A DNA stretch of 64,000 bases, taken from positions 29,611 through 93,610 of the forward strand of contig JAFRUI010000013.1 in NCBI GenBank assembly GCA_017438945.1, in the 5' to 3' direction. Source of the stretch: Bacteroidales bacterium (GTDB lineage: Bacteria; Bacteroidota; Bacteroidia; Bacteroidales; WCHB1-69). Positions 1,059 through 57,629 of the stretch are shown piece by piece. Position 1 is the stretch's first letter. Every line of letters begins with the position of its first letter. A program made the position numbers and the translations under genes. The notes below the pieces were generated by a model. It had not been told where the DNA came from, ran no database searches, and saw nothing but the letters and a program-made list of their open reading frames with translations.

Positions 1059-1090
1059 TTATGCATTATGAATTATGCATTATGAATTAA
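1059..1090. repeat. (ATTATG)-word array; right arm, reverse complement of the 618-685 array
   Basis: ttatgcattatgaattatgcattatgaattaa. Its reverse complement starts TTAATTCATAAT, identical to the first 12 nt of the left arm. It overlaps the last codons and stop of the minus-strand LytTR gene. Confidence 0.85.
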
Positions 1091-2144
1091 CATGGTAACC
1101 GCCGTGGCGCTTGCTGCCGACGTATTTGACGAGCTTGCGTTTGCGGAGCTCGGAAAGGCAACGCTCGACCGTGCTCAGCGAAATCTCGGTCTGGGCGACG
1201 ATATCTGTGGTGTTGCAGCCCGGATTCGCCTGAACGCAGGATTGAACCATGTCGAGTTTCTGCTGCGGGGGGACGACGGGCTTCCGCTTGGACTTCGACC
1301 GGGGCTTTCTCTTCGGAGCTTGTTCCCCTGCTGTTTCGGCCTTGCATCGCTGAAGACCCTCGGCGACCTGGTCGGCAATCAGGCCACTGTTTTTGGGATC
1401 CAACGTGAACGTGAGCGGCTTCTTCGTCCACGGCATCTTTTTCAGGAACACCTCGCTGCCGTTGCACGACCAGATGTACTTATACGGAACCAAAACGGTG
1501 GGCGAAATGCGGACAAAGTCTTCTTCCCCAAACAGTTGCACAAGATGTTTCATGGAGCCGAGCCGTGTAAACCAACGGTCATGCACCGTATAGATGCGGG
1601 TGAAGTTCCCGTCCTGAACACAATAGTAGATGTCGTCTTTGGGAATCATTAAGAGGTTACTCTCATTGTCTATTACATCCACCATCTGAGTGTCGCGATA
1701 GACCACATGCACCTCCGTGTCCAAGGCCTTTCGCAGTTCCTGCCGTTCGCGGAACATAAACGGGAAGAAGTTGAATGCCAAGGTACGGGCAGCCACAACT
1801 CTCCCATGATGGGTAAACATTCTGAAGGCGCCAAATTGCTCTATAACCTCCGCATTACAATATTTCATCCATTTCCAGGCGATAACCATCTCAATCAATC
1901 CTGCCACAAAGGAAACGAAAACCACTACCACCCAATAGACAACCGGATGCTTTTTATGAAGTAGGGGGTAAAACAGGAAATAGTTGGCATATATGGTGGC
2001 CAACAACAACAGCCCCGCAAGCACTTCATTGGTGACACTGCCCGCCCATGGACGAAGATAGGAGTTGTTGACAAAGAAGTAGAGCAGCACGGCGCAGAAC
2101 AAGACGTTCAGCAAAACGATAACGATGGTTCTTCGGTGTTTCAT
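1080..2144 (-). CDS. Membrane-anchored LytTR-domain protein with a K/P-rich linker and a C-terminal winged-helix module (paralog of 60004-61110)
   Basis: Hydrophobic N-terminal helices (TIVIVLLNVLFCAVLLYFFV, VLAGLLLLATIYANYFLFYPLL, VVYWVVVVFVSFVAGLIEMVIAW). LytTR-like core (IPKDDIYYCVQDGNFTRIYT...FVRISPTVLVPYKYI). C-terminus is NPGCNTTDIVAQTEISLSTVERCLSELRKRKLVKYVGSKRHGGYHV. Start moved to ATG 2144 because a -7 box lies at 2205-2212, inside the longer track ORF. Confidence 0.6.
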   Translation of the reverse strand: MKHRRTIVIVLLNVLFCAVLLYFFVNNSYLRPWAGSVTNEVLAGLLLLATIYANYFLFYPLLHKKHPVVYWVVVVFVSFVAGLIEMVIAWKWMKYCNAEVIEQFGAFRMFTHHGRVVAARTLAFNFFPFMFRERQELRKALDTEVHVVYRDTQMVDVIDNESNLLMIPKDDIYYCVQDGNFTRIYTVHDRWFTRLGSMKHLVQLFGEEDFVRISPTVLVPYKYIWSCNGSEVFLKKMPWTKKPLTFTLDPKNSGLIADQVAEGLQRCKAETAGEQAPKRKPRSKSKRKPVVPPQQKLDMVQSCVQANPGCNTTDIVAQTEISLSTVERCLSELRKRKLVKYVGSKRHGGYHVNS

Positions 2145-2204: not shown

Positions 2205-2212
2205 CAAAGATA
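2205..2212 (-). promoter_or_regulatory. Bacteroidota -7 promoter box (TATCTTTG on the minus strand) for the LytTR gene
   Basis: Plus strand reads caaagata, which matches TAnnTTTG on the minus strand. It lies 61 nt upstream of ATG 2144. Confidence 0.55.
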
Positions 2213-2334
2213 GTGAATTAATCCAAACAAAACCCCAGAAAACAGCCCCATTCCCTCACAGAAAAGCCCTCTAAAGCCCTCATAACAGCACAAAAATCAA
2301 ACATTTGCATAATGTATTGAAAATCAGATTTTTA

Positions 2335-2343
2335 CCCCCCCCC
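2335..2343. repeat. Homopolymeric C9 tract in the divergent control region
   Basis: tttttaCCCCCCCCCgaaat. The longest G/C homopolymer I noticed in the window. Confidence 0.95.
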
Positions 2344-2385
2344 GAAATATCCGTTCAAAAACCGTAATCCGGTCACATTTTTACA

Positions 2386-2414
2386 GTGAGGGAACATATT
2401 TTTTATGTGAGGGA
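2386..2414 (+). promoter_or_regulatory. Direct repeat GTGAGGGA x2 with 21-bp periodicity; candidate LytTR-type operator
   Basis: acaGTGAGGGAacatattttttatGTGAGGGAtataaa. Cores are at 2386-2393 and 2407-2414. The second core ends 23 bp upstream of the -7 box at 2438. Confidence 0.45.
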
Positions 2415-2437
2415 TATAAAAGTGTTGCGAAAGATAG

Positions 2438-2445
2438 TATTTTTG
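2438..2445 (+). promoter_or_regulatory. Bacteroidota -7 promoter box (TATTTTTG) for the giant T9SS cargo operon
   Basis: gtaTATTTTTGccg, 35 nt upstream of ATG 2480. The same ...gtatttttgcc context recurs upstream of murG, tRNA-Ser, hflX and mtgA. Confidence 0.65.
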
Positions 2446-2479: not shown

Positions 2480-5191
2480 ATGAAAAAGTTATTTATTATC
2501 CAATGGTTGATGTTGATTTCAATTCTAACTGTTGTGGCACAGGAGCCTGCTCTTCCCTACACGGCCACTTTTTCCACGTCGGAAGGATGGGTGCTGAACA
2601 ATGGTGATGCTCAGAATTACTGGATATTAGGTACCTCTGGCAGTAACAATGCACTCCTTGTGACCAACAACGGTGTCACCCCCACCTATTCCTACACCCG
2701 GAGTAATGTTGCTGCGGAAAAGACATTTGTGGTCGGGGATGCGGACAAGATTATTGTCTCTTTCGATCTGAAATGCGGCGGCAAGTACAACAAAGACTTT
2801 CTGAAGATGTTTTTGGCGCCTCCTTCCCAGATCTACGAGGGTGGAATCGCCTACTCGTGGGGTGTCAGTACGAATTCCCTCTATGCAGCCAACTTCAGCG
2901 ACCACTTCGACATGACCAACACGCCAAACTATCCTTACATTATCAATTTGACAGATGGCAAAACTATCCATTTGGATGTTCGGATGAACAATCCGATTGC
3001 CAATCCCGATACCAACTCAATTGCAAAACTGGTTTTTGGATGGGTTAATGACTACGGCAGCACTTACGATCACGGAATCCAGCCCGCACCAACAATCACC
3101 AATTTGCGTTTGAAAAGAGAGACCTGCACCCCTCTTACCGGATTGTCCGTCTCCAACATCCAGAGCCATTCAGTAGAGTTGTCGTGGAATATGCCTGAGG
3201 GTGGCACCTCTAATTATATTGTCCAATATGCTAAAGATGGCCAGAATTGGAACGATGCCTATATTACCACCGTGAACGTGCAGGACACGTCTGTGACGTT
3301 GACTGGATTGCAATCTATAACAAAATATTGGGTAAGGGTGGCACGCAATTGCGGTAGCGATACCAGTGTCTGGATCAAACAATCCTTCACTACACTTTGT
3401 GAATATATTGACACCCTTCCTTACATCTGCGACTTATCTCTTGTTTCAAGTACTATGCATCCGATTCCTGTTTGTTGGGAAAGAGGCCCAGGAAGCTGCT
3501 GCGACCCTGTTATTAGCTATGGTGCTATCAATCTTTGGATTCCCAACACCATCTCGATGCCGCATTTGAACAGACAGCTCATTGATATAAATACTGTGGA
3601 GGTTTCCTTTTCCGCCAGAAGTGAAACGAACAATGGCACCTTGATCATTGGTGTGATGACCGATGCCAGCGAAGACTCCACGTTTGTGGCTGTTGACACG
3701 CTAAGCCTGACTACATCATACGAGACTTATTTGGTTCCGATAAACGGTTACACTGGAGTTGGGGACAGAGTCTCTTTCAAATGTATCGACCACAGCGACA
3801 TATACGTGAAAGATGTGCTCCTTGACTATACGCTTTCGTGTCCAAGGCCATACGATTTGGAATCGTCCAGTCCTACGCATAACAGTATCAATTTGAGTTG
3901 GACGGGAACAGAATCATCCTGTAACCTATACTACCGAATCAAGGGGAACAATGCATTTACGGTTGTGCCGAACGTGTCGTTGAATAACAATGGCGTTTAC
4001 ACTTTGTCGGGACTGACCTCGGGTACAATTTACCAATGGTATGTGGCGGCACGATGCGATGACGGCACCGAAGCGGCAAGTCACGAACTCCACGATTTTT
4101 CTACTCTTTGCGATCCAATTGTTGAGCTTCCCGCGACTTGGGACTTTGAATATTATAACAATGAGACCATGTTGCCTGTATGTTGGAAAACATTATCCGC
4201 ATCTGCTACCATTAGGACGGACGAGTCTCACAGTGGTACACGGGTGCTGCGGCTGTACTACGTAGATAACGGGTCAAACATTGTCGTACTCCCCAAAGTG
4301 GAGGACAATCTCTATCCGATTGATAATTTGCAAATTAAGTTCTATGCCAAGAATATGGGAACTTATAGCGATTGGCATGTTCAGGTCATCGGTGGACTGA
4401 TTACGAATCCAGAGAACAGTTCCACCTTTATTCCTAACGACACAATTGATGTGATTGGTGCGGCAGGCGGAAGTTTCCAGGAATATACGCTTCGCGTGGC
4501 GGATTATCATTGGGCGGATGGCTATCCCGCCATAAGGTTTGTGAGAGTTAATGGCCCAATGTGGCTTCACATTGACGACCTGACATTGGAGGCCATCGAT
4601 TCCACATTACTCCCGGTGCGCCCCTCTGTGATGACTGTTGACGCAGACCCCATCGGACAGACAACCGCGACACTGAGCGCCACCATCAACAATCCGGACA
4701 ATCTGCTTGTCTCTGCAGCGGGTTTTGAGTGGCGTGATATTTCGGACAGCGCGTTTACGCAGGTCGATTGTTCCATCTCGAATAACGCTTTCATGACCGA
4801 ATTGACCAGCTTGACCGCAAACATGACTTACGCCTACAGGGCATTCATCACCTATTTTGGTATAACCGACTATAGTGAGGAAACGTTCTTTGCCACTTTG
4901 CCTAATAATAATGACTCGGTCCATGTTGACGACTATTTGCTCAGCTGCATCAAGCTATATCCGAATCCGGCAAATGAGTATATCGATGTACAATGTACAA
5001 TGAACGATGTACAATTGGAGGGCATTGAGGTGATAGATGTTTACGGCAAGGTAGTCCGTACCATTGTAGGTGCGAATAATCATTCGCCCCTACAGACCCG
5101 CATCAACATTTCAGGATTGGCCGGTGGCATCTATTTTGTGCGTTTGACCACCGATAAAGGCATTGTGATAAAGAAATTTGTGAAGAGATAA
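2480..5191 (+). CDS. T9SS-secreted surface protein (903 aa) with FN3 domains, beta-sandwich modules and a type A C-terminal sorting domain
   Basis: Signal peptide MKKLFIIQWLMLISILTVVAQ. FN3-like segments (CTPLTGLSVSNIQSHSVELSWN..., CPRPYDLESSSPTHNSINLSWT). GVMTD...STFVAVDT modules. C-terminus is YPNPANEYIDV...GIYFVRLTTDKGIVIKKFVKR. The track start at 2465 is a TTG. Confidence 0.85.
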   Translation: MKKLFIIQWLMLISILTVVAQEPALPYTATFSTSEGWVLNNGDAQNYWILGTSGSNNALLVTNNGVTPTYSYTRSNVAAEKTFVVGDADKIIVSFDLKCGGKYNKDFLKMFLAPPSQIYEGGIAYSWGVSTNSLYAANFSDHFDMTNTPNYPYIINLTDGKTIHLDVRMNNPIANPDTNSIAKLVFGWVNDYGSTYDHGIQPAPTITNLRLKRETCTPLTGLSVSNIQSHSVELSWNMPEGGTSNYIVQYAKDGQNWNDAYITTVNVQDTSVTLTGLQSITKYWVRVARNCGSDTSVWIKQSFTTLCEYIDTLPYICDLSLVSSTMHPIPVCWERGPGSCCDPVISYGAINLWIPNTISMPHLNRQLIDINTVEVSFSARSETNNGTLIIGVMTDASEDSTFVAVDTLSLTTSYETYLVPINGYTGVGDRVSFKCIDHSDIYVKDVLLDYTLSCPRPYDLESSSPTHNSINLSWTGTESSCNLYYRIKGNNAFTVVPNVSLNNNGVYTLSGLTSGTIYQWYVAARCDDGTEAASHELHDFSTLCDPIVELPATWDFEYYNNETMLPVCWKTLSASATIRTDESHSGTRVLRLYYVDNGSNIVVLPKVEDNLYPIDNLQIKFYAKNMGTYSDWHVQVIGGLITNPENSSTFIPNDTIDVIGAAGGSFQEYTLRVADYHWADGYPAIRFVRVNGPMWLHIDDLTLEAIDSTLLPVRPSVMTVDADPIGQTTATLSATINNPDNLLVSAAGFEWRDISDSAFTQVDCSISNNAFMTELTSLTANMTYAYRAFITYFGITDYSEETFFATLPNNNDSVHVDDYLLSCIKLYPNPANEYIDVQCTMNDVQLEGIEVIDVYGKVVRTIVGANNHSPLQTRINISGLAGGIYFVRLTTDKGIVIKKFVKR

Positions 5192-5220: not shown

Positions 5221-8200
5221 ATGAAAAAGTCTTGTATAATATGGTGTTTGCTTTTAATGGCCACATTGTCTCTGCCGACAGAGAAGTTGGAGGCGGAAAC
5301 GAGTGGCACAGGTCTGCCATTTGCATTGTCGAATTCCCTCTCCGATTGCGATTCCCCGAACGCGTTACATGTGTCCTCTGTGGCTGGTTCATCGGCGATG
5401 GTCATCTGGTCACCGCCCACGGCTAATCTGCCCGACAGCTACATCGTGCGGTATAAGGCGGATGCACAACCTGTCTGGACGGAAGTTGTCGCTATTGACA
5501 CCTTTTTGATGTTGACAGGATTAGAGAGAGCTACTCGCTATTGTGTCAACTTGTTCTATGTCTGTGGATTTGACACCACATTGTCATCGTCGGTATGTTT
5601 TAGGACGCTTCATTATCTGGAATGCTTGGAAACAGATCCCAACCCTACTGTCATTTCGGGCTCTCCCCAATTGGAATCAGGAAGTTTTCCGATATCGGGA
5701 GCCCTCCACTCCTACCGTGAAGAGATTATCAGAGCCCACGAACTCAGTCCTGACGGTAGCCCTGTTTTGCTCACGGGTATCTCCTACCAGTACACATCCC
5801 CATATCCTTTAGATACCAAAAATCATGTGGAAATCTATTTGACACATCGTGAAGATAGTGTTTATAGTAATAGCTTTGACTTTACCCCTCTTACTGAAGC
5901 TTCTTTAGTTTATGTGGGGAATTTTTACTGTCAGTTAGGATGGAATTATTTTGAGTTTTCTACCCCGTTCTATTTTGATGGTATTCATAATCTGGTTGTC
6001 TTTGTGTTAGATAAAACAGTCGATACTGCAACCGGCAGCAAAGCATACCACAAGTTTAAATGCCACGCAATACCCAACAACTATGTTTCATTGGGTTGGG
6101 TGACCACTTCACCTTTGGATCCCAATGCACCATTTCTCCCCACAGCTGATTTCATCCGCAACAATATGCGTTTCACGGTTTGTTCGCATTCCGAAAGCGT
6201 TCCTTGCTCTCCACCTAATATTTATCATCACGAATGGTCGAACGACAGCGTAACAATATACTGGGCATCGGGGTTGAATGATTCTGTTTGGGTGTTGCGT
6301 TATAGGTTGTTGGGAGACAATGGTTGGACTTATGATTCCACGGCTACTTCGCCGTACAAGATCTATGCACCATCACCAGACAGCATATACGGCATCGAAC
6401 TCCAATCGAAATGCGGTGACAGTCTGTACAGTGTTTGGAAATCGCCATTCTCAACAACGGATTCCCCTTGTCGTCCGGTAAGCGACATCACCTTGTCGTC
6501 CGTGAGTGAGCATACCGCCGAAATCACCTGGGTCCCAGGCGGAAACGAAAGTTTTTGGACATACTATCCTGTTGCGGATTTCACCACACCCGCCCCACCG
6601 CCTGCTAATGAGGGCTGGATTGCCACGACAGACCCTCTTTTGTTAGACTCACTTGCTGAGGGACATTGTCATCATCTCTGGATTAGAGCAGGTTGCGGTG
6701 CGGGAAACCTCAGTTCAGCCCAACCCTTTGAATTTTGGACAAGTTGCCATGAAATAGACCACTTACCTTATACTGAAGATTTCAACAACCCTGAAGATAC
6801 GATATATCTTGGTGCGCAAAATTCGGGACCGCTACCGCATTGCTGGCAAAAACTGAGCCCTTATCTCAACTCAGGACCTTATTGCACCAGTGATAGCTGT
6901 CTCATGTTTTACAGCACCAACAATGAATACAAGGTGGCCATTCTGCCGCGCCTTTCCGACGACCTGCTGATTTCCCACCTCAAGATGAGCTTCTACTGCA
7001 AGAAACTGCAAAATTCCTATTCATCCTCTTTGATAGTAGGTGTGATGGACAACCCCACAGATCTTTCTTCGTTCACACCTGTGGATACAGTTTACACTCC
7101 AGATGTCAATTGGTGGAATTGGCATCAAAGGGAGGTTTTTTTCGAAAATTACACGGGGACGGGACATTACATCGCTTTGAAATATCAGAATTCTTCCTCA
7201 AATTATTTCAAGATGGACAACTTGACGATAGATACCGCGTTCACCTGCCATACGCCCACAAATCTGATGGCGACAGGCATTTCACCCTCATCCATTTACG
7301 TGACTTGGGAGGATGAGGACGGTGAGAATGAGTGGCAGGTGGCGTTAGTGCCCAGCTATCTCACAGATCCCGACAGTAATCATATTGTTACCGTGCATGA
7401 GAAACATTATCTGGCTACAAATTTGACAGATAGCAATTATGTGTTCTTTGTCCGGACACATTGTGCCAATGGGTGGGGGTACAGTGAATGGACCTCTATT
7501 CCCGTGACCTCTTTTGCTTATCAGCCCGCCACGGTTCCTTACTCCCATAATTTCGAAGCCGGAAACGAGAATGCCGCGTGGCGGATGGAAAGCATGAATC
7601 CTGTCAGTCGGTGGCAAATCGGTGTCCCTAATGGTTACAGTGATTCATTGCTCTTTGTTACCAACAACGGCACGGATGCCTCATACGGCAACTCGTTGGC
7701 TGAGGCATGGGCGTACCGGGACTTTCTGTTAAGCGATGCCACCGAATACGAGATTAGGTTCAGATGGCTTTGTAAGGGGCATTCTTCATGGGCATATATG
7801 CAGGCGTTGGTCGGGGAACCCGCACCGATACCCCCTATAACCAACTTTGCAGACATTGTCTATCCCGAGGGTTCTGTTCCGATAGGCAATTATGCACTTC
7901 AGAATAATTGGAAGACAACCCGTTACGTATTGGGAAGCGAAAACGACAATACGGTGCGGCGTCTCTACTTCCGGTGGCGTAACGCGTATAATTCTGTGTA
8001 TCCTCCGGGAGCGGTCATCGATAATGTGCAGATAGTCCCTTATCACTGTTCGCGCCCTGTGGATGTCACGTTTGAGGGAGCGACGGCACATGAAGCTTTC
8101 ATCTCCTTCTCTTCTGGGGGGATTGAGCAGGTCGCCTGGCAATATGTGATTGATGCCGGTGATTTTGACCCCGACACAGTTTCAAATGTGGTTACGGTAC

Positions 8201-10209
8201 AAGACCCTTATATTCAACTCGCTGGTTTGCAGGCGAATACATTCTACACCCTGTATGTAAGATCAGTTTGCGAAAACAACTATCCCTCCGCTTGGTCAGA
8301 GGAAGTGACCTTCCGAACATCGTGTGATCCGCTTTCCATCCCATACTATGAGGATTTCACACCGGAAGACAGTCATTCAGGCAAGCTCCCTGGCTGCTGG
8401 TCTGCCCTTGCCTCTGAAACTGGCATCCATAGTCCTTCCATATATGTACCACATGCTTCTTGGGAAATAGACAGCAATGCCGTTCTCCGTTTTGCGGGTA
8501 TCGACTCCACAGAAGCTTTGGCCATACTTCCCGAGGTGCCTTCCGATTATTCTCTCAATAGTCTGCGAATGTCATTTTTCATACGCACAAACACGAACAA
8601 CCTCCACTTGATTGTGGGGGTGATGTCTGACCCTGATGATTTCTCGACCTTTGTCCCAGTAGATACAGTTCAAACAGTCGAGCCATTTTATATTGTCCGT
8701 AAGGAGGTTTTCTTTGACCATTATCAGGGCGCGGGTACTTATATTGCCATTTTATCCGATTACGTAGGAGACAACACTTGCCACCTCGATGTGGATGATC
8801 TAGTGTTGGATGTGGCACCCTCTTGTCTTGCTCCGTCCGGATTACGGGCCACTAACGTATCCCAGCATTCGGCAACGCTATGGTGGACGCCAGCCAATGA
8901 TGAACAGGCCTGGGAGATAGCTTACGGCACAGAAGACTTCAATCCCGATTCAACAACAAATGTCTGTGCGGTAAATACAAATCCGTTCGAGTTAACGGGG
9001 CTGGAGGAAGGAACATTCTACGGTTTCTATGTGCGGGCAATATGCTCTCCTGGAGAATACAGCGAATGGAGTCCGCTCGGCTATGTAATCACCCGTTGCA
9101 ATCCGATTTCAGTGGTCAGTCAGCCTTACCAAGAATCTTTCGATAGTTATACCACGGGGATTTCCTCATCGGCTTATCCACCTTTAGCGTATCCCTATAT
9201 CTCGTACCCCGATTGCTGGTCGTTCCTTAATCTCCATGCCATTGTCGGTTTTCCAGACGGGACGCTTCCCGCTGCGTTTTTATACAACGGAAGTATGGTT
9301 GTTTGGGGTAACAGTCTGCAGCTTGTAAACAGCAAAGTTAAGCCGTTGTTCGCGGTTCTTCCTGAATTTGTCGAACACCTCCGTTTCCTGAAGCTGACTT
9401 TCTCCTACAATCATTCGACCCTTAAGTCAATCCTTTCTGTGGGATATATGACCGACCCATACGATGGGGACACCTATCACGATGTGCAATTCTGCCCGAG
9501 TCCGAACTACTTAAGCAATTATTTCACGACTCTGACCATCGACTACAGCACACTTGGGCTGGACACTGACAGCACCTACTACATAGCCATCCGGGCTTAT
9601 GACACCATTAGTAGCTGGTTAAACGCCTCTATCGAAAACGTGAAAGTAGAGCTTGTACCGAATGCTTTCCCTGCACCCACGCAGCTGAATGTCAGCGATA
9701 TCACCACGAATTCGGCTGTACTGGATTGGACCAACGGGAATGACGAAGACCATTGGGTGGTACAGTACAGAGTGGCCGATAAATCCGGATGGACGGACAG
9801 CATGGAAGTTCTTGAGCATCCCGTCCTCCTCGACAGTTTGGCAACCAACACGGAATACGAGGTTCGGGTAAAATCGGTTTATGGGAAGAACAACAATACC
9901 ATGTGCAGTGCCTACACCACCACGGCTTTCACCACCCTCGACGACACTTGGGTGCCCGAATACGGTGGTTTTAACCAGCACGTCACCATCCGACCCAATC
10001 CTGCCAAACAATATATCGACGTGGTTTTGGACGAGGCTTCGGGACCTTGCCAGATCGAGTTGTACGACAGCCAAAGCCGAAAGGTCAGAGAGATGTCTAT
10101 GGCGGGAAAGAGTGTGAGAATCCCTCTCGGGCATCTTGCCTCAGGCGTTTATTTCATCCAAATCAAGAGCGATGATATAAAGGTCACCAAGAAATTCATC
10201 AAAGAATAG
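5221..10209 (+). CDS. T9SS-secreted giant surface protein (1662 aa): FN3 domains, choice-of-anchor-J/MAM-like modules, type A sorting domain
   Basis: Signal peptide. Repeated FN3 segments (CDSPNALHVSSVAGSSAMVIWSP, CHTPTNLMATGISPSSIYVTWED, CLAPSGLRATNVSQHSATLWWTP). GVMDNP/GVMSDP...TF.PVDT modules. One WAYRD...PPGAVIDNVQI module. C-terminus is RPNPAKQYIDV...GVYFIQIKSDDIKVTKKFIKE. Only 29 nt from the upstream gene with no promoter box, so probably co-transcribed. Confidence 0.85.
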   Translation: MKKSCIIWCLLLMATLSLPTEKLEAETSGTGLPFALSNSLSDCDSPNALHVSSVAGSSAMVIWSPPTANLPDSYIVRYKADAQPVWTEVVAIDTFLMLTGLERATRYCVNLFYVCGFDTTLSSSVCFRTLHYLECLETDPNPTVISGSPQLESGSFPISGALHSYREEIIRAHELSPDGSPVLLTGISYQYTSPYPLDTKNHVEIYLTHREDSVYSNSFDFTPLTEASLVYVGNFYCQLGWNYFEFSTPFYFDGIHNLVVFVLDKTVDTATGSKAYHKFKCHAIPNNYVSLGWVTTSPLDPNAPFLPTADFIRNNMRFTVCSHSESVPCSPPNIYHHEWSNDSVTIYWASGLNDSVWVLRYRLLGDNGWTYDSTATSPYKIYAPSPDSIYGIELQSKCGDSLYSVWKSPFSTTDSPCRPVSDITLSSVSEHTAEITWVPGGNESFWTYYPVADFTTPAPPPANEGWIATTDPLLLDSLAEGHCHHLWIRAGCGAGNLSSAQPFEFWTSCHEIDHLPYTEDFNNPEDTIYLGAQNSGPLPHCWQKLSPYLNSGPYCTSDSCLMFYSTNNEYKVAILPRLSDDLLISHLKMSFYCKKLQNSYSSSLIVGVMDNPTDLSSFTPVDTVYTPDVNWWNWHQREVFFENYTGTGHYIALKYQNSSSNYFKMDNLTIDTAFTCHTPTNLMATGISPSSIYVTWEDEDGENEWQVALVPSYLTDPDSNHIVTVHEKHYLATNLTDSNYVFFVRTHCANGWGYSEWTSIPVTSFAYQPATVPYSHNFEAGNENAAWRMESMNPVSRWQIGVPNGYSDSLLFVTNNGTDASYGNSLAEAWAYRDFLLSDATEYEIRFRWLCKGHSSWAYMQALVGEPAPIPPITNFADIVYPEGSVPIGNYALQNNWKTTRYVLGSENDNTVRRLYFRWRNAYNSVYPPGAVIDNVQIVPYHCSRPVDVTFEGATAHEAFISFSSGGIEQVAWQYVIDAGDFDPDTVSNVVTVQDPYIQLAGLQANTFYTLYVRSVCENNYPSAWSEEVTFRTSCDPLSIPYYEDFTPEDSHSGKLPGCWSALASETGIHSPSIYVPHASWEIDSNAVLRFAGIDSTEALAILPEVPSDYSLNSLRMSFFIRTNTNNLHLIVGVMSDPDDFSTFVPVDTVQTVEPFYIVRKEVFFDHYQGAGTYIAILSDYVGDNTCHLDVDDLVLDVAPSCLAPSGLRATNVSQHSATLWWTPANDEQAWEIAYGTEDFNPDSTTNVCAVNTNPFELTGLEEGTFYGFYVRAICSPGEYSEWSPLGYVITRCNPISVVSQPYQESFDSYTTGISSSAYPPLAYPYISYPDCWSFLNLHAIVGFPDGTLPAAFLYNGSMVVWGNSLQLVNSKVKPLFAVLPEFVEHLRFLKLTFSYNHSTLKSILSVGYMTDPYDGDTYHDVQFCPSPNYLSNYFTTLTIDYSTLGLDTDSTYYIAIRAYDTISSWLNASIENVKVELVPNAFPAPTQLNVSDITTNSAVLDWTNGNDEDHWVVQYRVADKSGWTDSMEVLEHPVLLDSLATNTEYEVRVKSVYGKNNNTMCSAYTTTAFTTLDDTWVPEYGGFNQHVTIRPNPAKQYIDVVLDEASGPCQIELYDSQSRKVREMSMAGKSVRIPLGHLASGVYFIQIKSDDIKVTKKFIKE

Positions 10210-10217
10210 TATCTTTG
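10210..10217 (+). promoter_or_regulatory. -7 promoter box (TATCTTTG) immediately after the stop of the 1662-aa gene
   Basis: aaTAGTATCTTTGcac. The stop TAG is at 10207-10209, and the box lies 67 nt upstream of ATG 10284. Confidence 0.5.
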
Positions 10218-10283
10218 CACCCAAAACTTTGAACTTTGAACTTTGAAACTTGAATTCTGAAACTTAGAAAAAAACATATTATT

Positions 10284-13200
10284 ATGAAAAACCTCATTTC
10301 CTTATTCGTTATTTTAGCGACGCTGGTGGCAGGGCTGAACGCGCAAACCCTCACGGTGGCCAATGACCCGAATGGTGTTGCTATGCAGGATCGATACATC
10401 CCTGTATATGGTTATTACATGGATGCGGCACAACGGTCCCAAACCATTTACCCCAATACCATGTTGACGGCGATGACGGGAAAATACATCACCGAACTCA
10501 CCTATTATTTCGCCACCGCGCCTAACGGGACTTGGGGCGGTACCCAGACGGTAAAGATTGGGGTGACGGCGGCCTCGGATTTGGCGAACGGGTTTGTCGC
10601 ATCGCCTGCCACGCTGGTATGGACCGGCACACTGTCGGCCAATATCTCCAACAACCAGATGCACATCGTGTTGGACCAGCCATTCCTGTATAGTGGAGGC
10701 AATTTGCTGATTGAGATTGAAAATCCGACGGCGGCTACCTGGAAAGATTCCTATTTCGCCGGTCAGAGCCAGTCTGATCAGCTGTCGTACATGACTTGGT
10801 CGAACTATGGCACACCCCAGACCCATGCAGCGAACTTTCTGCCAAGACTGACGTTTGCGTATTCCTCCACCCCGGGATGTGCCACACCTAACAACTTAGT
10901 TTCCTCAGTCAATGGCGATTCCGCCCTGCTGACCTGGTCTCCATCTCCATACAGCACTGTCTCAAGTTACACCGTAGGATACAAGTCTTCATTAGACACT
11001 GCCTACACGGATGTGACGACAACGGACACCTTCCTCACCATCAGCAACTTGATACCCAACACAGACATCCAATGGCGGGTTCGCGCCAACTGCGGCGATT
11101 CCGAACAGAGTTCTTGGAAAGCGGCCTCTCTGCACGTGCCGCAAGTCATAGGTAATCTACCCTATCACTGCGGTTTCGAGGATTTGGTCGAAAACCAGCA
11201 GTGGATGCTGCAAAACGGAAGCTACCCAAACAAATGGTGCATCGGGGAAGCCACACACATCAGCGGCAGCCATGCCTTGTACATCTCCAACAACAATGGT
11301 GCCAGCAACCAGTACTCCACCGGCAATTCAAGTTCCACTTCGACGGTTTGGGCTTATCGGGACATTTATTTCGACACCACCTACAACGAATACGACATCT
11401 CGTTGGATGTCAAAGGGATGGGACAAATAGATGCCGGCTTTATGCGTATGTATCTCGGTTCTCCGGCAACCCCTTCGGGAATGTCGGTTCCCGGCAACGC
11501 CATCCAAATGAGGACATTTTATTTCATAGAAAACTGGCAGCATTTCCATTTCGTTGTAGATAGCACGCACCGGGGTTTGCAGCGGATCTATTTTGTGTGG
11601 AACAACGGCTCTACCGTTGGCGTCAACCCTCCTGCCGCCTTCGACAATCTTACAGTGACCGGCGTCAACATTCCAGCCCCTACAGGATTGACCGCCACAG
11701 ACATCACTACCTCGTCCGCGACGCTTTCCTGGAATGGCAGCGCCTCGTCTTCCTATACCCTCTCCTACCGTATTGCCTCTGACACCGTCAGCACAGAAGT
11801 GACGGTCAGCGACACCTTCTTCGTGGCCACAGGATTGGATGTGTCACAGACCTATTTGTGGAAGGTCAAGGTGAACACAGGTACAGGAAGCGCATGGAGC
11901 GGTGAAAGCAGTTTCAAAACCCTGGCGAACATAGCGCAAGTGCCCTACCAGTGCGATTTCGAGGACAATTTGGAGAACCAGCAATGGCAGCTCGTCAACG
12001 GCAACTACCCCAACCGCTGGTTCATTGGAAGTGCCGTGAACCATGGCGGCGAAAAAGCGCTGTTCGTCTCCGACAATAACGGGGTGTCATACAGTTACAA
12101 CACCAATGTTTCCTACATTTGGGCATACCGCGACATTGACTTTGACACCATTTACGCTGGCCACCGTCTCTCCTTCGACTGTAAAAACCACACCTTCTAC
12201 AGCAGCAGTTACCATGGCACTTTCCGAGTGTATATTGGCGACCCCGTTGTCCCGAACGGCGGATATATTCCGGCTGGAGCTGTGCAGTTAGGCAGTGACA
12301 TTTACAACCAGAACAACTGGACACGACCCACTTTCCTGTTAGATTCCACCTACAGAGGAGTGAAACGCCTCTATTTCTATTGGCACACGCCCGGCTCCTA
12401 TTCCCGTGTGAATCCTCCTGCCGCAGTGGACAATGTCACCATCGAGAGCTTCACCTGCGCGACACCCGAGGGGCTTGCCGCCCAACCCGACAGCACCTAC
12501 GCTGTCCTCACCTGGAACGCGCCTGTTTTCGGCACGGCTTCCTCCTATACGCTGGCTTACAAGACATTGTCTGACCTTGAATACACGGAAGTGACGGTAA
12601 CCGACACCTTCTATCTTCTAACAGGATTGACGGCCTCCACCGAATACGAATGGAAGGTTCGCGCCCACTGTTCCGCAAACGATGAGAGCGACTGGAGCGA
12701 GTCGGTTTCGTTCATCACCGCACCCTTGTTAGCGCAACTTCCCTACTTCTGCGGGTTTGAAGATGCGTTGGAGAACCAGCAGTGGCGTTTCGTGAGACTG
12801 GCGGACGAGGGCTGGTTTATCGGGACCGCCACAGCCCACACAGGAGAACATTCGCTGTACAATTCCAACGATGGAGGAACAAGCTATGCGGTGAACCAAG
12901 CGGACTACGGATCCAATGTACACGAATTCTGGGCCTACCGCGACGTTAACTTCACTCCCGGGTATGCCGACTACCAGATTTCTTTCGACTACAAAGGCAT
13001 AGAAAACGCGTGGAGCAATTTGGTGCTGTTTATTGGCAACACTGGGGTAAGTGAGCCGGCCACATACACTTACACACCGGCAGGGACCCTTTTCTCCCAA
13101 TATTTATCCGCCCAAGACACCGCTTGGCATCACTTCTCCCTTACAATTGACTCGACTTATCAGGGAGTGAAGCGGATTTATTTCCATTTCAGCAACTCGT

Positions 13201-16200
13201 ACGATCCGTGCGAAGCGCCTGCCGCCATTGACAATCTCACCATTACGGGAAACGCCTGTCAGAGCGTCCGCAACTTGCAGACTCTCAGCATTTCCGACAC
13301 ATTTGCGATACTCGCTTGGAATCCTGTTGAGGCCGAGAATTACACAGTGGCCTATAAAACAGCTGACGAAACGGGGTTTACGGAAGTGCAAACCAGTGAC
13401 ACGACCCTTCAGCTCAATGGTCTGCTCCCGTCCACAACCTATGAATGGAAGGTGCGGGCGCATTGTTCGGATTCAACGGAGAGTTACTGGAGCGAACCGC
13501 TTACCTTCACCACGATACAGCTGCTTTCACATCTGCCTTACTTCTGCGATTTTGAAAACGCTGACGAAAACGCCCATTGGGAAACAACCGTTATCAACGG
13601 CAACAACCAGTGGTTCATCGGCAACGCTGCCAACAACGGCGGAACATCGTCCATCTACATCTCGCAGGATAATGGTCTTACCAACACCTTTGACATCAAC
13701 AGCACCTCTCAGGCAGGCGCATACCGCGACATCTACTTCGACCCCGAATACAAGGAATACCTCCTTTCCTTTGACGTGCGTTGCCAAGGCGGAGCATTGT
13801 CCATGGCAGCGATTCTAATCGGGAGTTCCACTGACTTCGACAATGACGCGGTACAGCTTGGCGGCGAGATATACGGACTGCCCGAATGGACACACTACGA
13901 AGTAATCCTTGACTCCACCTTTGCCGGCAACCGTCGCCTCTACCTGAACTGGAACAATATCTATTGGAGCTCCTTCAATCCGGGGGAGAATCCGCCTGCC
14001 GCCTTCGATAACATCTCCATATCGGGGGTGAGCTGCAGCAAACCCGTTGCCTTAGCCATGTCTGACATTGGCCTGCACACTGCCACGGTTTCCTGGTCGA
14101 GCGGAAATGCGGGGACAGCCGCCTCTTACACCGTGTCTTACCGCAAAAACACAGACACTGCATACGCTGAGGTGACCGTTTCCGACACCACCCTGCAACT
14201 CACAGAGCTCCAATCCGGCAGTCATTATTTCTGGAAAGTGCGCGCAAACTGTCAAGAGGGGGAAACGGGCGACTGGAGTGCGGAAAAAGAGTTCTACACT
14301 TTTGCGGAACTACCCTATTCATGTGGATTTGAGACTGCGGAAGAAAGTGATTTATGGGTGTCGCATTACCAAGCCACGTATGATAACGTAGCTGTTTATG
14401 AGAACCGCTGGTCGGTGGGTGAAGCGACTCACAGCACGGGAACTTCCGCCATGTATATTTCCAGCGATAACGGATTGTCCAACACCTATTCCTTTGATTA
14501 CGGCTGTACAGCATGGACGACGTTAAGTCTGTATCTTGATCCCGCCTACCCCGAATACCAGATTTCGTTTGACTTCAAAGGGGTCGGCGAGCAGGGACAA
14601 GACTACATGCGTGTGTATTGCGGCGACCCGACCTACACTTCCGACCAATCTTCTTTCCCCAATAATGTGGAACAGATAGGAGGGGATTTCAACCTCACGG
14701 AAGATTGGACGACCTTCACTTTCACGCTCGACTCCACGCACACTGGTTACAAACAGCTGTATTTTAGCTGGACAAACAATTATTACGATGGGGTGAATCC
14801 GCCCGCAGCCGTTGATAACATCATCATCATCGGTAATTCATGCGGCATCCCGACCAATATGACCCAACAGATTGCGGATTCAACGGCCATGCTGAAATGG
14901 TCGGCCAATATCGGTGAGCCCGAATCCTACATTTTGGCTTACAAGAAAACTTCTGACAGTGTGTTCACAGAAATCAACACCACAGACACTTCCCTCCTGC
15001 TCACCGCTCTTTTGCCCGAGACCGACTATGTCTGGAAAGTGCGGGCTGTATGCGATGACGACTCACAAAGTTTCTGGAGCAACACATTAGGTTTCACCAC
15101 CACGCAGCCGCTAAATCACCTGCCGTATCTCTGTTCCTTCGATGATGCGGAAGAGAACGGACAATGGACGATGGTGAATGGCGATGCTGAGAACCAGTGG
15201 GTCATCGGCAATGCCACTGGTTACGGCGACAACAGCGCCCTCTACATCTCCAACGACAACGGCACGACCAACGCCTACGATGTTTACTCCGCCGCCTCGG
15301 TTTGGGCTTACCGCGATGTCTATTTTGACGAGAATTTCCAAGCATACCAGCTGTCCTTCGACTATAAGAGCATGGGACAGAACACTGCTGACTACATGCA
15401 GGTGTTCGTGGGCACTCCCGCCGCTCCTTCCGGCACGGCTATTCCGAGCGGAGCGGTACAACTCGGCGGACAGTTCTCCTACATCAACAATTGGGCTCAC
15501 TATTCTTTCCTTGTGGATTCCACACACGTCGGAGCGCAGCGCATCTATTTCCTGTGGGTCAACAACAACTCCACGGGAGTGCAGCCGCCCGCCGCAGTCG
15601 ATAATCTCGCCATCCTCGGACTGACTTGTGTCACCCCTTCTGAGCCAGTGGTAACGGACATGACGGACAACACCGTGACACTCAGCTGGTCACCGAATCC
15701 GGTCGGCACTGCCGCCTCCTACACGGTGAGCGTACGACAGGCGGAGAGCACCACAACCACCGAATACACGACCACGGACACTTTCTTGACCGTAAGCGGA
15801 CTCACTCCGTCCGCCGCCTACTTCTGCAAAGTGCGCGCCAACTGCTCCGCCAACGACCATAGTGGATGGACCAGCGACCTCAGCGTCCAGATGCCGGCGG
15901 TTTTGCCCTACGTCTGTGACTTTGAAGATGCCAACGAGCGCAATGCTTGGCAAACTGTAAATGGGAATTATATTAACCAATGGTATATTGGCAATGCCGT
16001 TAACAATGGCGGGGATTATTCTATATACATTTCCAATGACGGTGGCGTTTCTTACGCCTTTTCCCAAAGTTACTCTACTGCCAACTTCTCATACGTGTGG
16101 GCATATCGGGACATTTATTTCGACCCGTCCGACTCTGTATATACTCTCTCTTTCGACTTCCGTGGGGTAGGTGGGACAGACTGGCGATATTTATCTTATG

Positions 16201-19200
16201 CGAATGTTTACATAGGTACACCTACTATCCCCAACGGCTCAACAGTACCCGACGATCTCACCGCACTTGAAACCGGTCTTTGCGGAATGTCGGCGTGGAC
16301 AACCAAGACCTACACGTTGGACCACACCTATTCTGGTCTGCAGCGTCTCTATTTCTTCTGGAGCAACACGGGCTATTATGTCGCCAACCCGCCGGCCGCT
16401 ATCGACAACATCAACATTGAAGGCACCCCTTGCACTAACGTTCCTTCCGAACTGACCGCACAGGTGATGGATACGCTCGCCAATCTATTGTGGTCTATGC
16501 CCAACGGCAGTGCCGAATCCTACACTGTCGCTTACAAACTGCAATATGATACCGCCTTCACCTACATCACCGTACAGGACGAACATCTCACCATTGGCAA
16601 CCTCAGTCCGCTGACCACCTACGTTTGGAAAGTGCGGGCCAACTGTACTGCCACCGACCACAGCCAATGGTCTGCGGAATCCACCTTCCAGACCCCGGCG
16701 ATAACCGCCCGTCTTCCATACGTATGTGATTTCGAAGATGCGGATGAGAACAGCCGATGGACGTTCGTGAACGGGAGTTACGCCAACAAATGGCATATCG
16801 GAAACGCTGTGAACAACGGAGGTAACTCATCTTTGTATGTTTCCAATGACAATGGCGCCACCAACACCTACACGACCAACTATTCGATGATATGGGCTTA
16901 CCGCGATGTCTATCTGGATCCCAGCTATACCGATTATGTGATCTCATTCGACTGCAGAGCTTTCGGCGAGCTGTATAACAACAATCCTGTTGACTACGCG
17001 AAGGTATTCTTAGGACCTCCCACGACACCAACTGTCACACCCGTCAGCTCAAATATTATTGTCCCCGACGGTGCAACCCAGATGGGCGATGTCATCTATT
17101 TGGATTCCACCTGGCACAATGTCACCATCAATTTAGACACCGCCTTCACTGGTCTGCAGCGCATCTACATCCTGTGGCGCAGCGATGTGTCATGGGGTAC
17201 CAACCCGCCGGCAGCCTTCGACAACATCTCCATCACACCGGAGGGTTGCGGCATCCCACGCCATCTGACCGCCAACCAAGTGTCGGAGAACGATGCAGTG
17301 CTGTCGTGGACTGCGGTTTACCAAGCCAATTCCTACACGGTGGCTTACCGCCGACAATCCGACAACACCTATAGTTATGTGACCGCCAACAGCACTCAAG
17401 TCACACTGACCAACCTGCAACCCAAGACCAACTATATAGCCAAAGTCAGGACCAACTGCGACACTATGCAAGGCGTTTGGAGCAACGAGTTCCAGTTCAG
17501 CACGACCACACTGCCCTATTTCTGCGGCTTTGAGGAAGCGGATGAGAACGTTTGTTGGATTTTGGATGACGGCATGAACAACCACAAGTGGTACATCGGC
17601 CATGCGGTGCACTGTGATGGCGATTCCGCGTTGTATGTCTCCAACAACAATGGTGCTTCCAACACATTCTCCGACAACGTGAACGCCCAGACCTGGGCTT
17701 ATCGCGACATCTACTTCGATCCGCAATATTCCGAATATCTGATGGAATTCGACATCCGTTCATACGGTTATCCCGGAGCGTCTGTGGACTATGTGAGAGT
17801 GTTCCTCGGACCGCCGGCAACGCCTTCCGGCAGTTACACCCCCGCCAACGCAGAAGTCATCGGCGACTTCTATGGAATGACGAACTGGAACCATTACCGT
17901 TTCGTAATCGACGGATCCCATGCGGGCATGCAACGTCTATACTTCCTGTGGAGACAGCAGGTTGCAGGGACGAACAATCCACTTGCCGGTGCTGTGGATA
18001 ACATCTCCATCGTCGGTTCGCCATGCAGCATCCCGACGGAGCTCACCGTTTCCGACCTTGCCGATGTCACAGCAGTGGTTTCCTGGAGCCCCGGCGCATG
18101 CGGCATCACCAACGACTACACGGTCGGCTACCGGATGAGCAGCGATACAGGATGGTACGAGCTTTCCACCACCGACACGTTCCTCTTGCTGCAGAATTTG
18201 CAGTCCTCCACGCAATACACTTGGCGGGTGCGCAAAAGCTGCGTGCCGTCATTCGCCAGCCAGTGGAGCGATGTAAGCACTTTCTTCACGGAAGCCACCG
18301 AAGCGCAGCTGCCCTATTTCTGCGGCTTTGAAGAGAGTGACGAGAACCGCGACTGGCGTCTGCTGGGTGTGGGCGATAACCGCTGGTATATTGGGCAGGC
18401 CGCGCAACAAGCAGGCCAATACGCCCTTTATGTCTCCAACGATAACGGCGCGACCAACGCCTACGATGTCTATGGCTCAGCGAGCAACTCCTGGGCTTAT
18501 CGTGACATCTACTTCACCCCAGGATATGCTGAATACCAGATTGCCTTCGACTTCCGAGGGCTTGGGCAGAGCGGCGATGACCGCACCCGCATCTTCCTCG
18601 GACCTCCTGTCCCTGTGGAGCCCAATGCCACCTATTCCATCACTATCCCTTCCGAATTGGAGGAACTCGGCAACGGGCTTTACACAGATGCCGCATGGAC
18701 CAGCCATTCGTTCACGGTCGATTCCACGCACGCGGGACACCAGCGGCTCTACTTCCTCTGGAGCAACGGCTACTATGAAGGAACAAACCCGCCGGGCGCC
18801 GTCGATAACATCATGATTTACGGCGGTTCCTGCGCCGCACCTCACACGCTGACGGTGACCGCGACCTCCACGACCAGCATCAGCATCAGTTTCACCCCCG
18901 CCGACACCAGCGACCATAATTGGGAAGCCGTTATTGTGGAAGACGGGCAACCTATTGACACCACGCAGCTTATTGCGCTGACAAGTACCGCTTACACCTT
19001 CAACAATCTGCACAAAGACAGACTCTACACCATCTATGTGCGTACCGATTGCGGGAACAGCAAGAGCGCATGGTGCTCCACTTCCCAAAGGACGGACTGC
19101 GGCACCATCACCGATATTCCTTATGTGGAATCCTTTGACACCTACGGCACCGGTTCCAATCTGGATGGCTATTCCGCATTCCCGAGATGCTGGAGCCGCC

Positions 19201-24389: not shown

Positions 24390-25016
24390 TCAGAAACTTG
24401 CCACCGCTTTCCTTTTATTGCTTGGACGACTTTTCTTCGTCTTCATAACAGAAACAGCTGTGTTATGGCGATCATGCTGTAAGATCCTCACGTCTGTCCG
24501 TAAATTGGCAATGTCTTTTCGAAGTTCTTCTGTGTTCCGATCCAGCTTTTCAGAAAGGTTTTCTATTTTCCGGTCAAACTTCTTATCCATACTCTCAAAC
24601 CGATCATCCATTTTCTCGAACCGCTCGTCCATCTTCTGTTCTAATTTTTCAAACCGCTCGTCCACTTTCTCGAACCGCTCGTCCATCTTCTGTTCTAATT
24701 TTTCAAACCGCTCGTCCACTTTCTCGAACCGCTCGTCCATCTTCTGTTCTAATTTTTCAAACCGCTCGTCCACTTTCTCGAACCGCTTGTCCACTTTTCT
24801 GAATCCATCGCGCATATCAGCGGACAATTGGTCAATTCTTTTAAGAATCTCTTTATGGCCCTCTTCCAGATGTTTTTGGGAAAGGTCAAGCCGGGTCACT
24901 TTTCTTGCGAACCGAAAGAGAAGCCAAGCAGCTATCAAAAGAAGACTGAAAATAGTAGAAAACATACCAATTGGACTTTCTGCTAAAATTTGCAACACTT
25001 CAATTATCTTATTCAT
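24390..25016 (-). CDS. N-terminally membrane-anchored coiled-coil protein with DERFEK tandem repeats
   Basis: 208 aa. One TM helix (MFSTIFSLLLIAAWLLF). It is followed by a charged heptad-like region containing FEKVDERFEKLEQKMDER x3. Confidence 0.6.
   Translation of the reverse strand: MNKIIEVLQILAESPIGMFSTIFSLLLIAAWLLFRFARKVTRLDLSQKHLEEGHKEILKRIDQLSADMRDGFRKVDKRFEKVDERFEKLEQKMDERFEKVDERFEKLEQKMDERFEKVDERFEKLEQKMDERFEKMDDRFESMDKKFDRKIENLSEKLDRNTEELRKDIANLRTDVRILQHDRHNTAVSVMKTKKSRPSNKRKAVASF
24613..24796. repeat. Perfect 54-bp tandem repeat, 3 identical copies plus a partial fourth, inside the coiled-coil gene
   Basis: Unit ttctcgaaccgctcgtccatcttctgttctaatttttcaaaccgctcgtccact occupies 24613-24666, 24667-24720 and 24721-24774 with 0 mismatches. 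A partial copy follows with a C>T change. Confidence 0.95.
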
Positions 25017-30301: not shown

Positions 30302-30337
30302 AATGGTTATGGGTTATTGGTTATGGGTTATTGAAGC
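30302..30337 (-). repeat. GGTTATG-word element, copy E2, 5 nt upstream of the ABC-F start
   Basis: aatggttatgggttattggttatgggttattgaagc. It has 36 nt with 1 mismatch to 34929-34964 in direct orientation. Its reverse complement starts with the same 20 nt as 21542-21561. Confidence 0.9.
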
Positions 30338-34928: not shown

Positions 34929-35022
34929 AATGGTTATGGGTTATAGGTTATGGGTTATTGAAGCGGGGTTATAGGTTAAGAGGTTATAGAGGTTAGGAGG
35001 TTAGAAGGTTATGGTTTATTCC
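34929..35022 (-). repeat. GGTTATG/GGTTAKR-word element, copy E3 plus extension, 10 nt upstream of the murE start
   Basis: aatggttatgggttataggttatgggttattgaagc, followed by ggggttataggttaagaggttatagaggttaggaggttagaaggttatggtttatt. Confidence 0.9.
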
Positions 35023-57588: not shown

Positions 57589-57629
57589 CATTTTTTTGTG
57601 AATTGTGAATTGTGATTGGTGAATTGGGG

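Follow-up and report, generated by a model that had tools for sequence, protein, structure and literature searches.

LytTR operators described in the literature consist of two or three 8-9-bp direct repeats with approximately two-turn spacing, and LytTR activators usually bind just upstream of the -35 element (PMC11347149). The AgrA boxes of the agr P2/P3 promoters and the sites of ComE, BlpR and PlnC/D each consist of two 8-9-bp direct repeats with a period of ~21 bp that are recognized by a LytTR fold. In Firmicutes LytTR activators, the repeats lie directly upstream of the upstream contact of RNA polymerase, sites are also found at the regulator's own promoter for autoregulation, and the targets are secreted. 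CoxC from Afipia carboxidovorans, considered here together with RcoM1, is a membrane-anchored one-component regulator of the MHYT-LytTR type, and the CoxC operator contains 8-bp direct repeats at 18-21-bp (two-turn) intervals by or overlapping the -35 element (PMC11347149). HigX from Caulobacter crescentus consists of four N-terminal transmembrane (TM) helices without a periplasmic domain, a low-complexity linker and a LytTR domain, and regulates envelope-related genes (PMC13384398). In the LytTR regulatory systems (LRS) HdrRM and BrsRM from Streptococcus mutans, a LytTR activator that binds direct repeats is combined with a 3-4-TM module that also lacks a periplasmic domain. Here, we compare with these systems a control region in a 64,000-nt stretch of Bacteroidales bacterium contig JAFRUI010000013.1 (hereafter the window), in which phased GTGAGGGA repeats lie between the gene of a LytTR-domain protein (hereafter the regulator) and a divergent array of type IX secretion system (T9SS) cargo genes.

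We propose, with a probability of about 0.72, that positions 2374-2445 of the window constitute the target-promoter half of the bidirectional control region of this divergent, membrane-anchored LytTR/winged-helix regulator, with cargo activation as the most likely outcome. An earlier annotation made from the letters of the window (hereafter the sequence-only reading) had suggested a LytTR-type operator of 21-bp direct repeats beside a promoter, to be bound by the divergent LytTR protein. This suggestion is supported by the fold of the regulator, by a module found in ~70 loci, by the co-variation of operator and regulator and by the repeat geometry known from the literature. The module is most likely the cognate operator, as predicted from sequence comparison, of an undescribed family of membrane-tethered one-component LytTR regulators.

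The locus shares with AgrA, ComE, BlpR and PlnC/D the pair of 8-9-bp repeats, the ~21-bp period and the LytTR fold, and with the Firmicutes activators the putative additional sites at the regulator's own promoter and the secreted targets; as judged from the consensus match of the -7 box, the repeats would also lie upstream of the polymerase contact. Unlike those systems, it contains neither a receiver domain nor a histidine kinase, and the regulator has four N-terminal TM helices and an extra C-terminal winged helix. The locus also differs in its Bacteroidota -7-type promoter and in a bipartite repeat unit that joins a constant CAyATTT element to a variable 8-mer. CoxC is similar as a membrane-anchored one-component protein with two-turn repeats, but it is an alphaproteobacterial repressor of unrelated sequence that uses a 7-TM MHYT gas-sensing domain and three repeats and has no winged helix-turn-helix (wHTH) domain; the regulator has four TM helices only and no MHYT match in Pfam. 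HigX is matched by architecture, but it recognizes an 8-bp inverted repeat without a spacer and lacks a wHTH domain, and multi-paralog co-varying operators are absent from the HigX paper (PMC13384398). HdrRM and BrsRM employ a separate downstream membrane inhibitor, whereas the TM module is fused N-terminally here and lacks an adjacent partner gene. HigX and CoxC come nearest to the regulator in domain architecture, and it is set apart from both by the winged helix, the multi-paralog expansion with co-varying operators and the Bacteroidota promoter. In its geometry the operator conforms to the LytTR canon, and the novelty lies in the regulator family and in the operators that co-vary with it. 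Full-text literature searches returned no paper on a LytTR regulator or operator for Bacteroidales or T9SS cargo genes, and none on an architecture of four TM helices, LytTR and wHTH.

Direct repeats in the divergent spacer

Two exact copies of GTGAGGGA are located at 2386-2393 and 2407-2414 on the forward strand with starts 21 bp apart, and 23 nt (2415-2437) separate the proximal copy from the putative -7 box TATTTTTG at 2438-2445, precisely as the sequence-only reading had reported. The repeat extends beyond the 8-mer noted there, given that CAcATTTTTacaGTGAGGGA (2374-2393) and CAtATTTTTtatGTGAGGGA (2395-2414) are 80% identical over 20 nt. A third exact copy of GTGAGGGA is inverted (2252-2259) and directed towards the LytTR gene, 39 nt upstream of the putative regulator -7 box TATCTTTG (2205-2212, minus strand). 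The 13-bp spacer and 21-bp period agree with the literature, in which LytTR sites are 9-bp direct-repeat pairs spaced 10-13 bp apart (PMC11347149). The locus shows the at least two direct repeats of ~8-9 bp expected of a LytTR operator, and related loci carry two or three copies. The distal CACATTT element (2374-2380) could belong to a third unit that has the constant half but no box; some paralogous loci (L037 and L041) contain a full third box at the distal CAyATTT position. The features of the region and its flanking genes are collected in Table 1.

Table 1. Features of the control region and flanking genes, in window coordinates
Feature	Position	Strand	Basis or remark
Regulator gene, 354 aa	1080-2144	-	Pfam LytTR and HTH_24; AlphaFold2 model; Foldseek
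TATCTTTG, putative sigma-A-type -7 box of the regulator's own promoter	2205-2212	-	Exact TAnnTTTG match
Regulator-side GTGAGGGA, putative autoregulatory site	2252-2259	-	39 nt upstream of the regulator -7 box
Degenerate second regulator-side box ATGAGGGC	2276-2283	-	24 bp from the first
Poly-C tract, 9 C	2335-2343	.	Between regulator-side and target-side boxes
Distal CACATTT element	2374-2380	+	CAyATTT has high information content across 30 representatives
Distal GTGAGGGA box	2386-2393	+	Single-nucleotide linker to the next CAyATTT in all subfamilies
Proximal CATATTT element	2395-2401	+	Sequence comparison
Proximal GTGAGGGA box	2407-2414	+	Followed after 23 nt, in a minority 22, by the -7 box in ~70 loci
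A/T-rich tail TATAAAAG	2415-2422	+	Family consensus TTAAAT or ATAAAT; occupies the -33 TTTG slot
TATTTTTG, putative cargo-promoter -7 box	2438-2445	+	TAnnTTTG match; conserved in ~70 loci
Cargo gene 1, 903 aa	2480-5191	+	Signal peptide, fn3, Por_Secre_tail (Pfam), TIGR04183 (NCBIfam)
Cargo gene 2, 1662 aa, T9SS cargo	5221-10209	+	29-nt gap from gene 1, no -7 box in the gap
Cargo gene 3, 3717 aa, T9SS cargo	10284-21437	+	Possible own -7 box at 10210-10217; AACTTTG heptamers upstream

How unusual is such a repeat within the window? Exact 8-mer pairs at an offset of 21 are expected ~0.94 times per 64 kb, with P = 0.004 in the 335-nt spacer. The GTGAGGGA pair by itself is thus only mildly unusual and constitutes weak evidence, which becomes strong once related loci are compared. 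All three window copies of GTGAGGGA fall inside 163 bp of this one spacer, with 2.08 copies expected per 64 kb on both strands, and every one of the ten further 8-mer pairs that the window contains at this offset belongs to a heptamer tandem repeat or a coding repeat. A pattern that describes the whole module (CA.ATT twice plus TA..TTTG at fixed spacing) matches once in the window and never in 20 shuffled windows.

Heptamer tandem repeats (TAATTCA, ATTATGA, AACTTTG, GGTTATG, TTGTGAA, TTGTACA and ATTCTTA) are present in many intergenic spacers and 5' leaders of the window, at 619-683, 1058-1089, 10225-10270, 30305-30331, 34932-35019, 57596-57626, 57848-57878 and 62453-62574, and explain most of the excess of offset-21 8-mer pairs. 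In-frame tandem repeats are located at 24595-24801 and 50711-52338; one set has a 54-nt period and 3.8 copies, and 147/156-nt in-frame repeats occur in up to 8 copies inside a 1770-aa minus-strand gene.

A module shared by related loci

A protein search for the regulator returned 350 relatives; among the 120 listed, the sole descriptively named one is annotated Bacteroidales. A degenerate-pattern scan of one genome per species yielded 79 loci from rumen and gut Bacteroidales metagenome-assembled genomes, with several paralogs per genome. Of these loci, 78 were usable, and their upstream regions were turned to the window orientation before comparison. The module is found at the equivalent divergent position in ~70 of the 78 loci, next to regulator relatives of 42-97% identity, with 0-1 mismatch in the 16 specified bases. 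It is built in a constant order of CAyATTT, N5-6, 8-mer box, 1 nt, CAyATTT, N5, 8-mer box, 22-23 nt and TAnnTTTG, so that in these ~70 loci the period varies only between 21 and 22 bp and the distance to the -7 box only between 22 and 23 nt. The -7 box precedes the ATG by 8-160 nt, commonly 25-65, and the downstream gene encodes a secreted protein or lipoprotein. In 30 representatives with a mutual identity below 80%, the information content peaks at the CAyATTT elements, the box core GnGAnGGn, the A/T-rich tail that follows the proximal box, and the -7 box; all 30 have a regulator-side -7 box at the corresponding site. The CAyATTTTTG elements were also considered as extra tandem -7 boxes and rejected, given that the leading T and the final TTTG are unconserved in the CACATTTC clade.

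The exact sequence GTGAGGGA-W-CAYATT-N6-GTGAGGGA was also sought in the Joint Genome Institute (JGI) metagenome collection, and each of the 11 matches is a complete module followed by a -7 box. A regulator homolog is adjacent in 6 of the 11, and four others lie on contigs of 2.4-3.7 kb on which no homolog was detected and which are too short for adjacency to be judged; in one match (L085), a second module lies on the same 128-kb contig as a regulator. Extra modules that carry the locus's own box 2-4 kb away (L018, L019, L022, L026 and others) indicate that small regulons exist. A chance repeat or a recent local duplication without function would be compatible with the expectation of about one exact offset-21 8-mer pair per 64 kb. 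However, this explanation is refuted by the comparative data, and its probability is practically nil, since the module keeps its fixed spacing in ~70 loci down to 42% regulator identity, has no match in the shuffled windows and is complete in 11/11 metagenome matches.

The cassette of the regulator ortholog precedes different genes in different loci. These are an ortholog of cargo gene 1 (L004, L006, L008, L011-14, L016 and L065), of gene 2 (L001 and L002) or of gene 3 (L003, 98% identity), a Fib_succ_major protein (L007) or a 483-aa secreted protein (L010 and L015). Homology among orthologous loci with different downstream genes stops just past the -7 box or at the start codon. This break indicates that the module is a functional promoter unit and links it to all three cargo genes of the window. 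A Pfam search with nine target proteins from paralogous loci found Fib_succ_major (L007) above the cut-off, Por_Secre_tail and outer membrane protein (OMP) beta-barrel matches below it, and otherwise no family.

The commonest target across paralogs is a 166-aa lipoprotein. At L062 (1146-3699, minus strand), a module precedes the genes of this type of Cys-motif lipoprotein (166 aa), an 83-aa Cys-rich peptide and a 439-aa radical-SAM enzyme, a trio that resembles a cluster for ribosomally synthesized and post-translationally modified peptides (RiPP) and would be reminiscent of the LytTR control of Firmicutes bacteriocin loci. L079, a distant member with 28% identity, lacks the standard module and instead has three copies of the 12-mer TGAGAAGATAAA upstream of its regulator gene (3725-3876), two of them direct and 118 bp apart and one inverted, which indicates that self-matched boxes reach beyond the module-bearing clade.

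Co-variation of the boxes with the regulator

The 8-mer is GTGAGGGA in the window orthologs and in some paralogs, and other subfamilies use GAGACGGA / ATGACGGA, GTGATGCG / GTGATGTG, CGAGGCGA, GAGAGGTT, ATGAAGGA or GAGATGGA. In most representative loci, one or two regulator-directed boxes lie ~38-40 and ~61-63 nt upstream of the regulator's TAnnTTTG. In each locus these copies have the same variant as the target side, and the match between the two sides is often an exact 10-mer (TGAGACGGAA, TTCGAGGCGA or TGAGATGGAA). Orthologs of the window carry GCCCTCAC, TCCCTCAC or CCCCTCAC at the position of the second regulator-side box, and the 23-24-bp spacing of the two boxes recurs across subfamilies. 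In a permutation test on the 30 representatives, target-side boxes match the regulator-side region of their own locus better than those of other loci in 20000 of 20000 random re-pairings, a figure that, like the mutual-information statistics given below, overstates independence because the loci are phylogenetically linked. Paralogs with different boxes even coexist in one genome, as in MAG_164 (L013, L018, L023 and L041) and RUG083 (L006, L020, L031 and L032), which rules out a shared global factor. Such co-variation is the signature expected of transcription-factor/operator pairs that would have diverged after duplication.

Could the boxes be read by a different factor, such as an extracytoplasmic function (ECF) sigma factor that uses them as a -35-like element, or a global regulator, with the LytTR gene nearby only incidentally? 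The proximal box lies about where an upstream promoter element would be expected. However, an element of that kind would not account for two or three phased tandem copies together with inverted copies at another distance from a second promoter, nor for locus-specific variants that change together with the neighbouring regulator paralog, also among paralogs of a single genome. Moreover, the downstream element is a primary-sigma -7 box and no sigma-factor gene is adjacent. We thus consider a different factor very improbable.

The inverted copies of GTGAGGGA (2252-2259 versus 2386-2414) could alternatively be the arms of an invertible DNA switch. The arms are 14-15 nt long with 87-93% complementarity and flank 114-135 nt, and phase-variable promoters are frequent in Bacteroidales. 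However, inversion would leave the promoters unswitched because the two -7 boxes are located beyond the arms. All 18 of 18 orthologous loci have the same orientation, and the window has no recombinase gene near the arms. Tandem phasing and paralog-specific co-variation are also atypical of recombinase sites, and an inverton is extremely unlikely here.

The poly-C tract between the two box sets contains 8, 9 or 10 C in close orthologs or is interrupted, and a change in its length would shift the helical phase between the regulator-side and target-side sets. The 5' leader of the regulator gene (2145-2204) is 60 nt long in the window and its closest orthologs and 22-33 nt long in most paralogs. 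An Rfam scan of 2000-2700 on both strands found no RNA family, and a scan of 1900-2700 for sigma-70 promoters and terminators, which is not relevant to Bacteroidota, gave background-level matches.

A membrane-tethered LytTR protein

The sequence-only reading had described the divergent neighbour as a LytTR-domain protein, and Pfam bears this out with a LytTR (PF04397) match of 24.3 bits over residues 163-228, compared with a cut-off of 22.6; most regulator homologs carry a precomputed PF04397 match. An AlphaFold2 model built on 31 homologs (predicted local distance difference test score 80) shows four N-terminal TM helices (residues 2-26, 37-63, 67-96 and 106-151), a LytTR domain at approximately residues 152-250 that is all-beta at 154-247, a basic disordered linker and a C-terminal winged helix at approximately residues 294-352. 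Foldseek relates the beta domain to the LytTR domain of AgrA (3bs1 and 4g4k), to 3d6w and to ComE with TM-scores of 0.74-0.76 and a root-mean-square deviation of about 3 A, and relates the C-terminus to SmtB/MarR-type winged helices. The AgrA-like ten-stranded beta fold is thus present in the model. A profile made from the family alignment found weak wHTH matches among PDB sequences and no LytTR match by sequence; the LytTR relationship emerged from the fold search. The same profile search weakly matched the winged helix (window 1080-1260) to the Z-DNA-binding Z-alpha domains of PKZ (E = 0.013), which is probably generic wHTH similarity.

The AgrA analogy drawn in the sequence-only reading holds for the fold but not for the type of regulator. 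The protein has no Response_reg match and hence no receiver domain, and no kinase gene is located nearby; it is therefore a membrane-tethered one-component protein with four TM helices and an extra winged helix rather than an AgrA-type response regulator. The regulator family is small, with 229 representative clusters at E <= 1e-3 among 1.84 billion, and no NCBIfam family names it. The 3' neighbours of the regulator gene are an oppositely oriented gene for a 23S-rRNA intervening sequence (IVS) protein and a Mg-chelatase-like gene.

Which domain reads which half of the repeat unit? In 61 non-identical family members, the recognition helix of the winged helix is near-invariant (TVERC) with a mean entropy of 0.71 bits, and the LytTR domain has variable positions with a mean entropy of 1.23 bits. 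A near-invariant helix cannot set the paralog-specific choice of box. Mutual information between box positions and regulator residues is highest for R183, D178, W191, E231 and T247, all in the LytTR domain. However, this signal reduces essentially to one deep clade split, in which R183 accompanies ...GGAA-CAT and D/E/N/S/T183 accompanies ...GGGTT-CAC, so the box is not assignable to a domain on this ground. A tentative and rather unlikely extension is that the 21-bp unit is bipartite in function, with the wHTH helix (S-TVERC-L) reading the constant CAyATTT and the LytTR domain reading the variable 8-mer. This arrangement would generate 'programmable' orthogonal pairs, at least 4-5 per genome, and a given pair would act only on its own exchangeable set of secreted proteins, such as T9SS cargo, lipoproteins or RiPP-like clusters.

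The cargo promoter and the sign of regulation

In Bacteroides promoters, TAnnTTTG lies near position -7 and TTTG near -33, and the latter motif is weak both there and in the phylum (PMC7366714). The cargo promoter has the TAnnTTTG box at 2438-2445 but no TTTG at -33, and no TTG is found 15-24 nt upstream of the -7 box at 2438. The sequence-only reading had taken this gap to mean that the promoter depends on an activator. The element is indeed missing, but the deduction fails, because ~17 TAnnTTTG sites in the window (e.g. 21615, 28175, 39494, 57581, 59307 and 61127) also have no TTG at a spacing of 17-23 nt; the missing -33 element is thus uninformative. The repeat had also been assigned to the -33 position itself. 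In Bacteroides promoters the spacer from -33 to -7 is ~19 nt, which together with the 4-nt -33 element adds up to the 23-nt gap, so the proximal box ends where the -33 slot begins. The proximal box abuts the slot instead of occupying it, and the repeat is probably promoter-proximal; the slot itself contains a conserved TATA or TTAA, not TTTG. The transcription start site (TSS) of the cargo promoter is predicted near 2450 from the TAnnTTTG box, which would put the boxes at about -43 to -36 and -64 to -57. The ATG of cargo gene 1 (2480) follows TATTTTTG after 34 nt.

Most of the 17 window TAnnTTTG sites have an A-tract plus TG ('aaaaaatg') directly 5' of TA and 'CCG' after the box, which may be a local housekeeping promoter form. 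The module promoter, unlike most other promoters of the window, has no A-tract directly 5' of TA.

The regulator probably activates the T9SS cargo genes. The same protein at the same sites could also have the opposite sign, as a repressor that occludes the -33 region of a strong promoter and is released on a membrane signal. The -7 box is a perfect TAnnTTTG, promoters of the window generally lack a -33 TTG, and the proximal unit, counted with its conserved A/T tail (2415-2422), reaches into the -33 slot; CoxC, also a membrane-bound LytTR protein, is a repressor that acts via three direct repeats overlapping -35 (PMC11347149). However, the 22-23-nt gap held across ~70 diverged loci suggests a fixed RNA polymerase geometry that occlusion would not need, and the absent A-tract hints at a weaker basal promoter. 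Furthermore, most characterized LytTR proteins that bind just upstream of -35 are activators (PMC11347149). Repression is therefore unlikely, and we favour activation.

Several observations weigh against the proposed LytTR operator and activator, in addition to the shared ancestry of the loci in the statistics above. The classical LytTR consensus, as reportedly defined by Nikolskaya and Galperin in 2002, is (A/T)(A/C)(C/A)GTTN(A/G)(T/G) with a GTT core, and neither GTGAGGGA nor the family core GnGAnGGn contains this core. The RcoM and CoxC (TTNNNGCN) sites likewise depart from the classical consensus (PMC11347149). The regulator has a second putative DNA-binding domain, the wHTH, so the reader of the 8-mer may not be the LytTR domain. 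Given its perfect -7 box in a window whose promoters generally do without a -33 element, the cargo promoter could be self-sufficient and the regulator a repressor like CoxC. On the regulator side, the distance between boxes and -7 box is ~15-16 bp greater than on the target side, which means a different helical face, and one mechanism may not fit both promoters. Finally, the position of the TSS is a prediction from the TAnnTTTG box.

Proposed mechanism

How might the module operate? The regulator would bind the two head-to-tail units (CAyATTT, N5 and GTGAGGGA), which are 21 bp or two helical turns apart, so that two regulator molecules would be arranged head to tail on the same face of the DNA. 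The proximal unit ends where the -33 contact of RNA polymerase would begin, 23 nt before TATTTTTG. A fixed contact with the polymerase is suggested because the 22-23-nt gap is strictly kept and the A-tract 5' of TA is absent. The bound regulator would thus recruit or position sigma-A RNA polymerase in a class-II-type activation, as AgrA, ComE and PlnC do. Cargo gene 1 would be turned on directly, and genes 2 and 3 would be transcribed by read-through. The opposite-facing 8-mers, ~39 and 63 nt upstream of the regulator's -7 box, would serve autoregulation. The 4-TM domain is presumably the sensor and would receive its signal in or at the membrane.

The cargo array

All three cargo genes encode fn3-rich proteins with T9SS C-terminal sorting domains. 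The sequence-only reading had regarded the promoter as that of a giant operon. No -7 box is found between genes 1 and 2. A possible -7 box at 10210 precedes gene 3, which may have its own promoter. Within 10205-10283, this TATCTTTG box begins one base past the stop codon of gene 2 and is followed by a heptamer-repeat leader; the same leader sits directly behind the LytTR module, before gene-3 orthologs, in L003, L005 and L083. The cargo array seems to have been reshuffled at the -7 box, as judged from the arrangement of these loci.

Significance for Bacteroidales

The present findings extend a known theme, in which LytTR proteins and phased direct repeats are placed beside the promoters of secreted products, and overturn nothing. 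They offer a testable regulatory code for uncultured rumen Bacteroidales, which comprises a 70-bp module, its probable cognate factor and approximately ten natural specificity variants. The regulator and module are also a possible source of orthogonal regulator/promoter pairs for Bacteroidota genetics. For the bacteria themselves, this code would account for the way in which expression of giant secreted fn3 proteins, and of further surface or secreted cassettes, is turned on.

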